Part shown: one piece after another, positions 27,153-32,519 of the stretch
Position numbering within the stretch: the stretch's first letter is position 1
How the letters are laid out: the number at the start of each line of letters is the position of its first letter
Source: Escherichia phage FL38
Sequence record: PP400784
DNA: 64,000 nucleotides
Direction: 5' to 3' (one strand)
Notes under the pieces: model-generated
What the model was told of the DNA's origin: nothing
The model's database searches: none
Seen by the model: the letters and a program-made list of their open reading frames with translations, nothing else
Position numbers and translations under genes: made by a program

Positions 27153-27213
27153 ATCAAAACCCTCGCTTAGTGGAATGTTCTGGCATTTTATTGATACATT
27201 CAGCTTGGTAGTC
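27149..27213 (-). repeat. direct repeat copy 1 (~65 bp) spanning a gene junction
   Basis: About 85% identical to 27328..27391. Confidence 0.6.
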
Positions 27214-27330
27214 ACGAGATTTTTTTGACGAATTAAGAGCTACAGCCAAAAAATCCTGTAACTGTTCGTTTGTCATTTTTGGCTTACACCGCGTATCTAA
27301 ACCCTTCGTTCTTCTAGCTTCATTAGCCAT
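27154..27330 (-). CDS. hypothetical small protein (58 aa), ends ...ECINKMPEHSTKRGF
   Basis: Not in ORF track; C-terminus encoded by direct repeat copy 1. Confidence 0.4.
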   Translation of the reverse strand: MANEARRTKGLDTRCKPKMTNEQLQDFLAVALNSSKKSRDYQAECINKMPEHSTKRGF

Positions 27331-27391
27331 ATCAAAAACCTCGCTTAGTGAAATGCTCGATCATTTTATTGATACATGCAGCTTCACTATC
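27328..27391 (-). repeat. direct repeat copy 2 (~65 bp) spanning a gene junction
   Basis: About 85% identical to 27149..27213. Confidence 0.6.
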
Positions 27392-27499
27392 GCCGGACAC
27401 GTTCCAGCCGTATAGACCCCATCTAAAGCACATGGTAACAGTTCCATTGTGACGGCTTACCGTCACATCATTAAATTCTGGGATACTTCGCATAATCAT
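27332..27499 (-). CDS. hypothetical small protein (55 aa), ends ...ACINKMIEHFTKRGF
   Basis: Not in ORF track; SD GAGGAAA; C-terminus encoded by direct repeat copy 2. Confidence 0.4.
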   Translation of the reverse strand: MIMRSIPEFNDVTVSRHNGTVTMCFRWGLYGWNVSGDSEAACINKMIEHFTKRGF

Positions 27500-27509
27500 A
27501 ATAATTTCC

Positions 27510-28901
27510 TCAAATATAGTCTACTCGATACCTCGCACGGGTAACACCCACATATAATAACTGCATTGCCAATTCAAAGTCAACATTGTCTGTACACATG
27601 CAAGGAGTATACAGGAACACGCGGTCTACGCTGATCCCTTGTGACTTATGAATGGTGCAAGCTGGTAATGCTTTTACATTCAAGAACATACGCTTCATCG
27701 TCCAGAAGGAATCCCAATCTGGTTTAAATTTTGGATTCTCTTTCTTCATTTCGCGATATTGTCCGGCGACCGTATTCAGATAGATAGAGAAAATGTTCTT
27801 CTGACGTTGTTCTGTCAGAATGTTGATTTCTACTAAATCTGGTTTATCTGTAGTGATTCCGACTGCATCTAAACCGACTTTCTGATTTAGGATTTCTTTG
27901 TCTTCGTCATCATCGACGCTTTCCACTTTCAGAGTATATCCTAAAACTGGTTGCGGATCTACCCCCGTGCAACGTAATGTAAATTCACGCGGGATGACCT
28001 CTTTAACTCGGATCATCTCACCATTGTTAAAAATAACATTGGGAATCTTCTTCCCGCGTTCATCTCGCAGATATTCGATCAATGGTTCCTGAGTAACCAG
28101 AATTTCATCTACAATCACTGGTTCATCGGTGTTATAAACGCGCTTACGTACAATTTCATTGAGTTTTTCGACGCTCTTGTTAGTGTAGGCCAGAATACGG
28201 TTTTCTAGAAGGTCTTCCGGCGTTTTAACGGTTTCGAAATAATGCTTCATAAACTCCGGCAGAGTTGAGCTATGGAATACACCCTCGTTACCGCACTGCT
28301 TTTCGAATACCCATTTACCATTACGGACAGCGGTCGCCACATCAATTATTGGAGCATTAGATCGTTTAATCTCTGTAAGTTCTACATTCTGAAACCTTTC
28401 ATCGGTGAAGAAAGGAGAGATCGACGTTGCACCGCTCGGATCAACTGGTCGTAACTGGTTCAGATCACCCACGGCAATAATAACAATTCGACCGTTGATA
28501 CTCTTCATGAGAATATCAAATAGTTTCTTATCGACCATACTCGCTTCATCAACAATGATGATCTGAACATCATCTAGCTTAGGAGTATCTTTTTGCTCAA
28601 ATACTTGAGTATCTTCATAGTTGGTCGGGTTTAGTCGCAGTAGTGCATGTAAAGTAAATGCTTGACGACCTACCGCTTTACTCAAAACTTTTTTAGCCTG
28701 GTGGGTAGGCGTTGCCAAAACCACACCAGTTACCCCACGACGGACCATTTCCTGAACAATGAATTTCATCATTGCGGTTTTACCAGTACCCGCCGCACCA
28801 CGGACAGTTGTATGCTTCTTTTGTTCAATACGTTTCATTAGAACATCAAAAGCATGTTTTTGCCCGTCTGTTAACATATCGAAAGTTAATACTCTGCTCA
28901 T
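27510..28901 (-). CDS. dda: Dda-like SF1B DNA helicase
   Basis: 463 aa; Walker A GAAGTGKT; VDEASMV Walker B; position after dexA as in T4. Confidence 0.85.
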   Translation of the reverse strand: MSRVLTFDMLTDGQKHAFDVLMKRIEQKKHTTVRGAAGTGKTAMMKFIVQEMVRRGVTGVVLATPTHQAKKVLSKAVGRQAFTLHALLRLNPTNYEDTQVFEQKDTPKLDDVQIIIVDEASMVDKKLFDILMKSINGRIVIIAVGDLNQLRPVDPSGATSISPFFTDERFQNVELTEIKRSNAPIIDVATAVRNGKWVFEKQCGNEGVFHSSTLPEFMKHYFETVKTPEDLLENRILAYTNKSVEKLNEIVRKRVYNTDEPVIVDEILVTQEPLIEYLRDERGKKIPNVIFNNGEMIRVKEVIPREFTLRCTGVDPQPVLGYTLKVESVDDDEDKEILNQKVGLDAVGITTDKPDLVEINILTEQRQKNIFSIYLNTVAGQYREMKKENPKFKPDWDSFWTMKRMFLNVKALPACTIHKSQGISVDRVFLYTPCMCTDNVDFELAMQLLYVGVTRARYRVDYI

Positions 28902-29215
28902 TATCCTAAAATCCTCACCTTGCGAACACAGATAGTATTGAGTTCTCGCCGTACCCGTTCTTTTTCATATTCAGGAATTTTATATTCGATACCATCCCGA
29001 ACAATTTCAGAAGACCGGATTATGCCAAATTTTCGTTTAGGTACAACCTTGTATTTCGGTTCACCCGCCAATAGACTCTCACAATAATCTATCTGATCAC
29101 ACATTGACGCTAACGCAGCATCATGTGTTTCGCAAGTTAGGACGCGACCCTTCGCGTCCACTGAGTATTGAAAGAATCCGTCTTTATCACGATAACATAC
29201 AGCAAATACATGCAT
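28901..29215 (-). CDS. hypothetical protein (104 aa)
   Basis: ORF coupled to dda. Confidence 0.5.
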   Translation of the reverse strand: MHVFAVCYRDKDGFFQYSVDAKGRVLTCETHDAALASMCDQIDYCESLLAGEPKYKVVPKRKFGIIRSSEIVRDGIEYKIPEYEKERVRRELNTICVRKVRILG

Positions 29216-29970
29216 TATAAACCTACCTTCGCTTTCATCAATTCAATCCACGACGCATCAATCGGAAGCCCGTATTTCACGCGTTCTTTTTGTGCTGGCG
29301 TTAAGTTCTCATACTTAGAAAGAGATTCAATCAAAACGCTGGTATATTTTAGCACGATTTCGGTATTGTTTGCAATAGCCTTAAGTTTTTCTTCTTTCTT
29401 GTTGATTTCGCTAAGTGCTTGCTTGAGATCTGCAATTTTCTGATAACGTTCTTCCATACGGAAGAGAGTATTTTTAATCGCTCGCTCGGCTGCCTCTGCT
29501 TTCTCCGGTTCGTTGTGCTTTTTATGGCGCTCGATTGCTAATTTCTTTTCTTCGATTGCCATTTCCTGATTTTTGATGCGATTCTCGTTAAGTTCGATCC
29601 ACTCGATGTACTTCGCACGTAGGGCAATTTCATCATCAGAAAGTTTACCGTTAGTTCCTAGTTCCTGGATCTCTTTAAGAGATTCGATAGTGTGATTGCC
29701 ACGGAAAGAATTGTATTTCAGTTTAACCGGAATTACATTGCCATCAACATATCCCAGATTGCAATCAATGCGCTCTAAGGAGAGTCCGTCATCACCTTCA
29801 CCGAAAGCCTCACCTGAATAGGCACAATGAGTCTGACGGTAAATGTTACGAACAGTGACTAAGCTCATAGAGAAGTCTTTGTTGCGACGTGAAGCACCAG
29901 CCATGATAGAGTTCAGCCGGAAAACAACCAGCGCCAATTCTTCGTTAGATTTAAAAGCAAACAGTTTCAT
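29215..29970 (-). CDS. hypothetical protein (251 aa) with HNH-like N-terminal motif and coiled-coil C-terminus
   Basis: HCAYSGEAFGEGDDGLSLERIDCNLGYVDGNVIP...NSFRGNH resembles a degenerate HNH motif; Lys/Glu-rich C-terminus. Confidence 0.45.
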   Translation of the reverse strand: MKLFAFKSNEELALVVFRLNSIMAGASRRNKDFSMSLVTVRNIYRQTHCAYSGEAFGEGDDGLSLERIDCNLGYVDGNVIPVKLKYNSFRGNHTIESLKEIQELGTNGKLSDDEIALRAKYIEWIELNENRIKNQEMAIEEKKLAIERHKKHNEPEKAEAAERAIKNTLFRMEERYQKIADLKQALSEINKKEEKLKAIANNTEIVLKYTSVLIESLSKYENLTPAQKERVKYGLPIDASWIELMKAKVGL

Positions 29971-30031
29971 AATTGATTCTCCTTAGTTGGTATGTGTGTA
30001 TTATTGTCTATCTGGTTTGTGCTGTCAACAC

Positions 30032-30535
30032 TTAAATTAAAGAAAATTTGTAAATCTCTATCCGATCGCCATTACACGCGTAAACTTCCTCGATCTCATC
30101 AAGGATCATGGTCGTCCCTGTCTTGTATATGCACTCGCGCTCATCTGCCAACATAGCATACAAAGACAGTCGAGTAGTCGGATTGTCATACTCTTTAGAC
30201 ACCACTCGGTCAATAGCATGTTCGTAATAATTCATGCAAGGCTTGGTAGGTTTTATTGCAATAATCTTTCCTGTTGCATAAACATCGGTCGCAAAGTCCT
30301 CTGCTGTTGATTGCAGTGGCGTAAAGCTCATAGGACGCTCTACAACGAAAGAATCGCCTACAATTAAGGTATCCAGCTTACGACCTTCTCTTTTGCTCAC
30401 ACCGCGATACAAGGCTTCATGATGCACTAACCGCTCAGTCTTTTCGATCAATCCATTAAGGATCGACATATCGATATTTTCTTTAGAGTTCATCACTTCA
30501 TCAATGATGTTAAGTTCTTCTGGTGTAAATTGCAT
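30032..30535 (-). CDS. hypothetical protein, possible ADP-ribosyltransferase-like (ModA/ModB position)
   Basis: 167 aa; candidate R (LYRGV), S-x-T (MSFTP) and E-x-E (ERE) motifs in ART order; synteny with T4 mod genes; speculative. Confidence 0.35.
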   Translation of the reverse strand: MQFTPEELNIIDEVMNSKENIDMSILNGLIEKTERLVHHEALYRGVSKREGRKLDTLIVGDSFVVERPMSFTPLQSTAEDFATDVYATGKIIAIKPTKPCMNYYEHAIDRVVSKEYDNPTTRLSLYAMLADERECIYKTGTTMILDEIEEVYACNGDRIEIYKFSLI

Positions 30536-30604
30536 AATAAAAAAGCCTCCAATCTTTCGACGGGAGGCATAATAAAACCATTATAGAGTAGTGTCAACTA
30601 ATTT

Positions 30605-31129
30605 TTAGTAGCCGCGTTCTTGACGGGCGAAGTTTTCAGCATTTTTCAGATAGTACAGAATAAAGAGTTCTTGAGCGTCAATACCCAGCGGGATCATCTT
30701 TGACAGAATGAAGTGGATCGCGTCCACAAATTCAAATTTCACTTCAAGCTGATCTTCCGGTGACAGTTCAGAGAATTTACGCGCTCGCGCTTCTCCGTGG
30801 TTCTTTTTCCACATTTTCCAGATTGCACTTGCATCTTTACCATTGGACATTCCACCCAGCGATGTGTAAAGCTCTCGTGTTTCGTCTGCGATAGCGTCAT
30901 CCATCCGTTGCATCCAATCCAGCATTTCACCGCAAGTCTCTAGCTTAGTTGGATTTGGGACCCAATCAAATTTTTCGGATAATGCAACCTGCAAACCAGT
31001 TTGCATTTCGAGCATCACCTGAAACGGATCTTTACCTTCTGCAATAGCGTGATGATATGCGGCGATAGCCGCGTTAATATCTTTTTCGTTAACCAGACCA
31101 GCACAAGAATTAAATTCTGACATATTCAC
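30605..31129 (-). CDS. 56: dCTP pyrophosphatase-like (MazG-type) protein
   Basis: 174 aa (T4 gp56 is 171 aa); acidic MazG-like helices; adjacent to primase gene. Confidence 0.6.
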   Translation of the reverse strand: MNMSEFNSCAGLVNEKDINAAIAAYHHAIAEGKDPFQVMLEMQTGLQVALSEKFDWVPNPTKLETCGEMLDWMQRMDDAIADETRELYTSLGGMSNGKDASAIWKMWKKNHGEARARKFSELSPEDQLEVKFEFVDAIHFILSKMIPLGIDAQELFILYYLKNAENFARQERGY

Positions 31130-31137
31130 CTCATTAA

Positions 31138-32166
31138 TTAAAATTTACAATATTTCATAAACCGCATTTTAGCCATCAGACCTTGTACGGTGTTCTCTTT
31201 GATGTATTCCATGATCTGGTCGCGTGTAGCGCCCTCGTCCTGAATCATGGCGTTAACGTCTTTAGAATGCCACGGGCAACGATCCCACAATACAATCTTT
31301 TCCCCTGCATTGATAAACTTTTCCAGTCGGTGCATTGTATCGGCAGACCGTGGTTCCGCATCAAGTACAAACACTCGCTGGTCTGGGAAAGGGATTTCAT
31401 CTAATCCCAAAGTACCGCCAGTAATTGCACACCCGTTATCAATAAACAATGAATCGATCGGACCTTCTAAGAAATACACTGGTTTACTCGGATCGGCGCG
31501 TTCAAGACCATAGACCTTACTCGCTAACTCGTGAGTTTTAATCGTCATATATTTGGTCTTTCCGTAATCCTTTCTCAATGCTCGCCCCTGAATGGATTCT
31601 ATCTTGTTCTCGCGGTTAAAGATAGGAATCACTAAACGCGGTTCAGGTTGTGGATTCTTGAAAGTATCAGCCTTAATGTGATTTGCTACCTTTTGCCATT
31701 CTCTCGTGAAATACAGAAGATCCCATTTATCGTGAGGAATACAGCGATCACTGACATACTTTATTATAGGATGATTAGCCGGAAGAGTATCTAATCTCTC
31801 GCAGAAAGGCAATGTTTGCACTTTCTTAATCTCCGGCTTTTCTACCTTTTTCAGTGGCTTGAACGTGGTGTTCTTGTGGTCGCCTTGTTCCTTCCGTCGT
31901 TCCATAAGCCATTCCCTGAATAGGTCCGGCTTATACTGTTTGAGAAATTCACCTAACGGCTGATTGTAGTTACAGTTGAAACAGCCGCAACGCAAACTAT
32001 CCTTATAGGTATAGATACGGAATCGCGCTTGAGTATGATTTTTCTTTGAGTCACCGCAGATCGGACAACTACAGACCAGCGTAAATGAGCTAGTATGCAA
32101 CCGTTTAAAATTTCGTTCGCCGTATATGGCTTTTTCCGCTATTTCATAATCTGCGTAGTAAATCAT
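31138..32166 (-). CDS. 61: DNA primase
   Basis: 342 aa, same as T4 gp61; N-terminal zinc ribbon CSCPICGD...CGCFNC; TOPRIM region. Confidence 0.9.
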   Translation of the reverse strand: MIYYADYEIAEKAIYGERNFKRLHTSSFTLVCSCPICGDSKKNHTQARFRIYTYKDSLRCGCFNCNYNQPLGEFLKQYKPDLFREWLMERRKEQGDHKNTTFKPLKKVEKPEIKKVQTLPFCERLDTLPANHPIIKYVSDRCIPHDKWDLLYFTREWQKVANHIKADTFKNPQPEPRLVIPIFNRENKIESIQGRALRKDYGKTKYMTIKTHELASKVYGLERADPSKPVYFLEGPIDSLFIDNGCAITGGTLGLDEIPFPDQRVFVLDAEPRSADTMHRLEKFINAGEKIVLWDRCPWHSKDVNAMIQDEGATRDQIMEYIKENTVQGLMAKMRFMKYCKF

Positions 32167-32175
32167 ATTAACCTC

Positions 32176-32379
32176 TTATAGCTCAAATTTCATGAAAGTT
32201 CCTACACTTTCATTTTCATTCTCTCCGTTCTCATCTAAGCCAAATTTGTAGACACTACCATCTGGCGATGTGTAAGAGAATACACGAAAACGGCCTACCG
32301 GATCAAGTTCTGTAAATTCATATTCTTTTCCGGCTTCAAAAAGTGCATATGTGCTTTTAAGACATTTCATCGTAATCAT
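32176..32379 (-). CDS. hypothetical protein (67 aa)
   Basis: ATG overlaps the stop of the small gene above (ATGA). Confidence 0.5.
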   Translation of the reverse strand: MITMKCLKSTYALFEAGKEYEFTELDPVGRFRVFSYTSPDGSVYKFGLDENGENENESVGTFMKFEL

Positions 32380-32519
32380 TTAAGCGCCACCGACAACAGA
32401 ATGAGAACTACACCAACATACATTGTGATCTCGGATAACTTTTCTGTTTTTGTTTTGTGTCCAGATAATCCGAAAACAACAACACCGATAATAGCGGACA
32501 GCAAGCCAACGATAAACAT
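32376..32519 (-). CDS. putative small membrane protein (47 aa, 2 TM)
   Basis: Not in ORF track; SD GGAGAAAG; stop overlaps the next start (ATGA). Confidence 0.45.
   Translation of the reverse strand: MFIVGLLSAIIGVVVFGLSGHKTKTEKLSEITMYVGVVLILLSVALK

Follow-up and report, generated by a model that had tools for sequence, protein, structure and literature searches.

We analyzed 64,000 nucleotides of DNA from Escherichia phage FL38 (sequence record PP400784), which we refer to as the window. An earlier note on this DNA had pointed out a 167-amino-acid open reading frame at 30032-30535 as a possible ADP-ribosyltransferase (ART). The reading frame is present, on the minus strand, with an ATG start codon and a TAA stop codon (by direct reading of the window sequence), and we call it mod. 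It lies within this group of genes:

27510-28901, minus strand: dda (Dda helicase), after dda.1, as in T4
28901-29215, minus strand: homologue of dda.1/Y01A, after srd (PF25693 Phage_Y01A, E 7e-21)
29215-29970, minus strand: Srd, the downstream neighbor of mod (phrog_1400, E 6e-74)
30032-30535, minus strand: mod, Mod-family ADP-ribosyltransferase, 167 amino acids, 19.2 kDa, pI 4.8 (reading frame, phrog_832, ART fold, and identity to an NCBI protein)
30605-31129, minus strand: gp56-type dCTP/dUTP pyrophosphatase, the upstream neighbor of mod (phrog_173, E 5e-37; Pfam dUTPase_2; gp56 annotation in RB49)

The flanking genes are the two that had been named for this locus, a gp56-like gene and srd. 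The gene order in the window is 56 - mod - srd - Y01A/dda.1 - dda, an order that is shared by phages SP18, Melville, QL01, and X20. In T4, the order is 56 ... modB - modA - srd - dda.1 - dda. The claim that the T4 mod genes occupy the equivalent slot is correct: modB and modA are directly upstream of srd-dda.1-dda. T4 has these two Mod paralogues in tandem, whereas we found one in the window, with no second paralogue. No partner immunity gene or hydrolase gene adjoins mod.

Short open reading frames on the plus strand overlap mod (for example 29992-30156, 54 amino acids), and we take these to be antisense by-products of mod. In several Krischvirus genomes, homing-endonuclease genes (HNH and others) are inserted in the stretch from the primase gene through 56 and mod to srd. 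When we compared positions 29000-32200 of the window to ECD7, JSE, ELT3, KFS-EC, and vB_Eco_SAP, the matches were split into 2-3 pieces; the window itself has no homing-endonuclease insertion at 29000-32200. Downstream of dda, two small reading frames adjoin each other on the minus strand (27154-27330 and 27332-27499, encoding 58 and 55 amino acids), and their C-termini are nearly identical (AECINKMPEHSTKRGF and AACINKMIEHFTKRGF), which suggests the tandem duplication of a small gene. There is also a 178-nt indel relative to L010 (a related metagenomic sequence, discussed below) near 27154-27499.

The window belongs to the genus Krischvirus: over the 3.2 kb around mod, its identity is 99.9% to Escherichia phage Delraymugoa and 98.8% to RB49, a member of this genus. 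The protein is already in NCBI as XAO16200.1 (phage FL38, "ModA or ModB ADP-ribosyltransferase"), in a cluster of 92 members at 90% identity. The RB49 orthologue, AAQ15305.1, is annotated as "modB, ModB ADP-ribosylase"; it has the same position and neighbors, there is one non-synonymous change between the two, and we see no difference of substance. About 58 phage records (Krischvirus) carry this Mod at a protein identity of at least 95%. In other words, mod is an ordinary annotated gene of RB49-like phages (Krischvirus), from a known family that has its own Pfam entry; it entered the public records with the deposition of RB49, and its detection here is a rediscovery. The public names for this same protein disagree, though: modA, modB, "ModA or ModB", and hypothetical protein are all in use. 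Our search of the literature did not find experimental or biochemical work on any Krischvirus Mod.

Family membership and predicted fold

The earlier note had based its suggestion on three motifs: R (LYRGV), S-x-T (MSFTP), and E-x-E (ADERECIY). These are at residues 42-46, 69-73, and 130-137, where they had been placed. The codons at the core of each motif are:

30401-30409, minus strand: Y43-R44-G45, the aromatic-Arg NAD-binding motif with the R of R-S-E, on strand beta1 (from invariance and the T4 alignment); the R44 codon is at 30406-30404
30320-30328, minus strand: S70-F71-T72, the STS-type motif with the S of R-S-E, on a beta-strand that is followed by a helix (from invariance and the structural model)
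30134-30142, minus strand: E132-R133-E134, the ExE catalytic motif, at the ARTT loop / start of strand 135-137 (from invariance and the alignments)

In a search against PHROG profiles, phrog_832 ("RNA polymerase ADP-ribosylase") matched residues 2-163 of the window Mod (E 7e-21). Using BLASTP, the protein is similar to T4 ModB (33% identity over 113 amino acids, E 7e-11) and to T4 ModA (23% identity over 159 amino acids including the ExE region, E 2e-6). Pfam's Mod_ADP_RT family (PF26816) is precomputed on all of the homologues in the database, including P0001, which is 98% identical to the window Mod. Our local copy of Pfam does not contain PF26816, so the window Mod's membership in this family is by way of the precomputed domains of its homologues. 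Word-indexed searches for homologues returned few proteins (3, then 9), so we took the census of the family by running HMMER exhaustively against 1.84 billion representatives, which gave 159 family clusters at E ≤ 1e-3.

The window Mod had no significant matches in local scans of Pfam-A and NCBIfam or in a single-sequence phmmer search of PDB. This could be taken to mean that mod has decayed into a relic without catalytic activity, or that its reading frame arose by chance and its motifs are coincidental. But the authentic T4 ModA and ModB proteins do not match anything in Pfam-A or NCBIfam either, so these negatives are uninformative. Furthermore, when we aligned 40 of the more diverse members of the family (18-74% identical to the window Mod), the only invariant columns besides Met1 were R44, G45, S70, E132, and E134. 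These are exactly the R-S-ExE signature, and they fall within the three motifs of the earlier note. The dN/dS ratio of mod is 0.03 relative to RB49 and 0.07-0.16 relative to diverged alleles, and the gene is evolving under purifying selection. The invariant and intact catalytic residues, the dN/dS ratios, and the conservation of the gene in about 58 Krischvirus genomes effectively refute a relic or a chance reading frame, and we consider either one to be extremely improbable.

The conserved residues have clear equivalents in the T4 enzymes. R44 and G45 align with R73 and G74 of ModB and with R72 and G73 of ModA; S70 aligns with S99 of ModB and S96 of ModA; and E132 and E134 align with E171 and E173 of ModB and with E163 and E165 of ModA. 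The M101-N102-Y103 strand aligns with F127-N128-F129 of ModA. The R73A variant of ModB is catalytically dead (PMC10468400), and R72 and E165 of ModA are listed as catalytic residues in a review (PMC8120803). A profile of the family has weak matches to solved structures (XopAI, E 0.06; Vis, E 0.05), which we used for motif register only: the YRG, STS, and ExE motifs are in register with those of Vis, which is an arginine ART, and E132/E134 align with the ExE of both XopAI and Vis. ExE is characteristic of the ARTs that modify arginine (PMC8120803).

The same review gives S109 as the serine of the R-S-E triad in ModA (PMC8120803). In our 40-sequence alignment, the column of S109 is in a variable helix (it is T83 in the window Mod), and the invariant serine on a beta-strand is S96 of ModA, which corresponds to S70 of the window Mod. 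The alignment indicates that S96 of ModA and S99 of ModB are probably the canonical STS serines of these Mod enzymes.

A model of the window Mod from AlphaFold2, using nine sequences, is confident (pLDDT 90.7, pTM 0.84). When we compared the model to PDB with Foldseek, all of the best 50 matches were R-S-E ARTs, including Certhrax (E 3e-7), VIP2, C3, iota/CDTa, HopU1, and XopAI. Among predicted viral structures, the TM-scores to ModA and ModB proteins from other T4-like phages were 0.85-0.93. In the model, R44 is on strand 42-45; S70-T72 is on strand 69-72, which precedes the helix of residues 75-85; and E132 and E134 are at the entrance of strand 135-137. As modeled, this is the canonical ART arrangement of the R, S, and ExE motifs. 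The protein has all of the hallmarks of the R-S-E (cholera-toxin-like, ARTC) group: an aromatic-Arg on beta1, an S-T-S-type strand, ExE, and the ART fold. The proposal of a possible ADP-ribosyltransferase had been offered on motifs only, to be dropped if structure prediction or profile searches found no ART fold. It is now supported by the match to phrog_832, the similarity to T4 ModB, and the ART fold of the model, so the outcome was clearly the opposite.

Compared to the bacterial arginine ART toxins of the R-S-E type (Vis, VIP2, iota/CDTa/CPILE-a, Certhrax, C3, HopU1, XopAI, and Tre1), the window Mod is only 8-21% identical in sequence. Also, unlike these toxins, it lacks domains for secretion, translocation, or binding and consists of one minimal stand-alone domain of 167 amino acids that would be intracellular in the infected cell.

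Matches to the profile of the Mod family also fall in internal domains of some very large proteins of 1,500-4,285 amino acids, at several stretches in each (P0034, P0047, P0051, P0055-P0057, and others from the library of representatives). Large "polyvalent" proteins of phages and plasmids that bear ART domains have been described, and these matches are consistent with such proteins.

Relationship to ModA and ModB of T4

To place the window Mod within the family, we built a neighbor-joining tree (BLOSUM62, 43 sequences, 100 bootstraps). The window Mod is in a separate clade with 100% support, together with five short proteins (P0002, P0003, P0010, P0011, and P0016), all of them metagenomic; the clade's proteins are 161-176 amino acids long. 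We did not find close matches to P0010, P0011, or P0016 among sequenced phages. T4 ModA and T4 ModB are in other clades, and the nodes that connect these clades have under 50% support. The short clade is placed nearer to ModA, but the node that joins them has just 32% bootstrap support. Members of the short clade do not have the N-terminal extension of about 30 residues or the insert of about 12 residues that are found in the T4 enzymes. The absence of both could matter for the recognition of targets.

ModB of T4 modifies the ribosomal protein S1, EF-Tu, and trigger factor, and it attaches RNA to S1 and L2 (RNAylation; PMC10468400). The window Mod might be its functional equivalent, modifying the same three proteins and attaching NAD-capped RNA to S1 and L2. 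T4 ModB (207 amino acids) is in the same family (phrog_832 / Mod_ADP_RT), its R-S-ExE residues align with those of the window Mod, and its early gene lies between 56 and srd, as does mod, which is probably early too. It is the best pairwise match in T4 (E 7e-11, compared to 2e-6 for ModA). Like ModB and most other members of the family, the window Mod has Y-R-G and S-F-T, where ModA has the derived W-R-G and S-A-S, and modB is the name that is given to the gene in RB49 and several other records. However, these family-typical residues are ancestral states and as such are not a sign of shared targets, and elsewhere in the public records this protein is called modA or "ModA or ModB". The similarity to ModB ends at residue 113; the window Mod is 40 residues shorter, without the N-terminal extension or the insert, which in ModB precedes the ARTT region. 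And it clusters elsewhere in the tree: it does not group with ModB to the exclusion of ModA. Equivalence to ModB is quite possible, but we would give it somewhat less than an even chance.

Alternatively, the window Mod might be the functional equivalent of T4 ModA (200 amino acids), which ADP-ribosylates Arg265 of the alpha subunit of RNA polymerase. It would then modify Arg265 of both alpha subunits, and UP-element-dependent transcription of host and early genes would be shut down. ModA belongs to the same family and has the same fold. The alignment to ModA is full length (159 amino acids) and includes the ExE region, the tree puts the short clade closer to ModA, and residues R72, F127/N128/F129, and E165 of ModA are conserved in kind as R44, M101/N102/Y103, and E134. 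But the identity to ModA is only 23%, and the ModA-specific residues W71, A97, and K93 are absent from the window Mod (they are Y43, F71, and R67). Given the negligible support for the node near ModA, the tree does not group the protein with ModA either. Furthermore, phages of the RB49 type already have Alt and a paralogue of its C-terminus, which could cover the alpha subunit. We think that equivalence to ModA is somewhat unlikely.

The genes for these other ARTs of RB49 are at 11489-14442 of L007 (RB49, AY343333): alt, which encodes 683 amino acids, and the adjoining ORF183c, which encodes 274 amino acids and is a paralogue of the C-terminus of Alt, as noted previously (PMC1524935). Alt and ORF183c both carry LYRG, VSTS, and ECE motifs. 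We identified three R-S-ExE ARTs in RB49 (Alt, ORF183c, and Mod), only one of which is of the Mod type; this count covers RB49 from 100 to 150 kb, plus the mod region. T4 also has three ARTs (Alt, ModA, and ModB), but the assortment is different.

Judging from the tree and the ModA-specific positions, the short clade is orthologous to neither ModA nor ModB of T4, and the label modB is unsupported. Because the phylogeny places the window Mod with neither of them, its targets can be assigned by analogy only.

Promoters, cassette structure, and allele exchange

Upstream of mod is a putative early promoter, followed by a predicted stem-loop, and there is a second putative promoter downstream, for srd:

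30000-30028, minus strand: second early promoter, for srd, TTGACA-17-AATAAT (11 of 12 consensus positions)
30539-30568, minus strand: stem-loop, with GCCTCC (30568-30563) pairing with GGAGGC (30550-30545), followed by T6 (30544-30539) (from the fold centroid)
30569-30597, minus strand: sigma-70-like early promoter of mod, with -35 TTGACA (30597-30592), a 17-nt spacer, and -10 TATTAT (30574-30569) (11 of 12 consensus positions)

The promoter of mod is 34 nt upstream of the ATG. In two diverged relatives, its -35 is invariant and its -10 is nearly so. These matches suggest that mod is expressed early from a sigma-70 promoter. The stem-loop is present in the fold centroid, whose energy is -15 kcal/mol for the whole 85-nt segment. 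The sole candidate for a Shine-Dalgarno sequence, GGAGG, is in the 3' arm of the stem-loop, 10 nt before the ATG, and a transcript whose start is some 7 nt downstream of the -10 would begin just past the 5' arm. In L009, a contig from a diverged relative, the stem has one compensatory change (U-A to C-G, giving GCCCCC/GGGGGC). The proposed roles of the promoter and the hairpin come from the matches to the consensus and from this one compensatory change. The promoter of srd begins 4 nt after the stop codon of mod and is 100% identical in L008, a metagenomic contig that is discussed below. We found no terminator between mod and srd, and no RNA family from Rfam matched within 28500-32500.

In RB49 and phi1, elements known as PeSLs (promoter-early stem-loops) combine strong sigma-70 promoters with terminator stem-loops and mediate the modular shuffling of genes (PMC2839356, Arbiol et al. 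2010). By its structure, the element at 30539-30597 matches a PeSL-type cassette. Like the PeSLs of those phages, it is intergenic and combines a sigma-70 promoter that fits the consensus with an adjacent G/C-rich stem-loop and T-run, followed by the Shine-Dalgarno sequence and ATG of the next gene, and the element is conserved while the gene that it flanks varies. Unlike the commonest arrangement in those phages, in which the stem-loop is between or over the promoter hexamers, the stem-loop in the window is just after the -10. The text of the PeSL paper does not mention modB or srd (PMC2839356).

Variation in mod is apparent from sequences L010-L014, which are from a related metagenomic Krischvirus lineage (170 kb). 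Relative to the window, the nucleotide identity is about 72% in gp56 and about 70% in mod, as compared to 88-93% in gp61, 91-92% in srd, and 94-97% in dda.1. By this comparison, gp56-mod (30032-31129) is a divergent island between the window and L010-L014. (There are also matches to this region in Klebsiella phage DNA, but these cover only a fragment of gp56 and are irrelevant to mod.)

Contig L008 is like the window in most of the region: gp56 is 96% identical, the intergenic regions are 99-100% identical, and the start of srd is 87-99% identical per 100 nt. Its mod allele (L008:695-1198, aligned to 30041-30509 of the window), though, is 94% identical to L010 and only about 70% identical to the window, and between L008 and the window the synonymous sites within mod are saturated. 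The breakpoints are in the first ~30 nt of the mod reading frame and ~9 nt before its stop codon. This pattern fits an exchange of alleles that was bounded by promoters or by PeSLs, but L008 is a single metagenomic contig of 1.7 kb, and it could be a chimeric assembly.

This divergence is relevant to another explanation, in which the window Mod combines the ART fold with another chemistry or class of target: it could be an NAD+ glycohydrolase, an ADP-ribosyltransferase of nucleic acids, or an anti-defense enzyme that acts on an immunity protein of the host. The short clade is distinct and has no characterized member. Also, mod is among the most diverged genes of this neighborhood between Krischvirus lineages (70% at the nucleotide level, versus about 90% for gp61 and srd), and the apparent exchange of mod as a cassette is a pattern that is often seen for genes that are involved in conflict. 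However, the protein has ExE rather than QxE, which implies arginine acceptors on proteins (PMC8120803); its nearest characterized relatives are protein ARTs; and there is no immunity or hydrolase partner next to the gene. Overall we consider a different chemistry or target class to be improbable.

Proposed role of Mod during infection

We propose that mod encodes a small and catalytically competent mono-ADP-ribosyltransferase of the Mod family, in the R-S-ExE clade, that is specific for arginine, is expressed early, and acts on the host's transcription or translation proteins. From the sequence and the analogy to T4, we consider this to be probable (roughly 85%). The proposed action draws on what is known of R-S-E ARTs and of Alt, ModA, and ModB from T4 (PMC8120803, PMC10468400, PMC9503650).

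Immediately after infection, the host's sigma-70 RNA polymerase would transcribe mod from mod's own early promoter. As these transcripts would have their 5' ends immediately beyond the 5' arm, their ribosome-binding site would be free. In transcripts that read through from gene 56, the hairpin would form, and this would lead to termination or would mask the ribosome-binding site. NAD+ would bind in a cleft that is lined by Y43-R44-G45, S70-F-T72, and the M101-N102-Y103 strand, and E134 together with E132 would catalyze the transfer of ADP-ribose to the side chains of arginines in host proteins. Going by the T4 enzymes, the targets might be that of ModA (Arg265 of the alpha subunit of RNA polymerase) or those of ModB (S1, EF-Tu, and trigger factor). 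Their modification would help to redirect the host toward the expression of phage genes.

For the annotation of these phages, the clash of public names reflects the protein's unsettled orthology to ModA and ModB. Because the modB label does not have phylogenetic support, statements about the function of T4 ModB (modification of S1 and EF-Tu, or RNAylation) should not be transferred uncritically to records that carry this label. The result also illustrates that a reading based only on motifs can recover a real enzyme; otherwise its value is about that of a correct annotation.

A more speculative idea, which we think is unlikely, is that the short clade is a third and minimal lineage of Mod (161-176 amino acids), the only Mod found in the window, alongside the Alt and truncated Alt paralogue that are annotated in RB49, whose spectrum of targets may differ from that of both T4 enzymes (for instance, the alpha subunit of RNA polymerase along with translation factors, or a new target) and which may be exchanged as a promoter-bounded cassette under diversifying pressure from the host. 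In any case, a compact Mod of 167 amino acids could serve conveniently as a minimal model of how Mod-type enzymes recognize their targets or of RNAylation.
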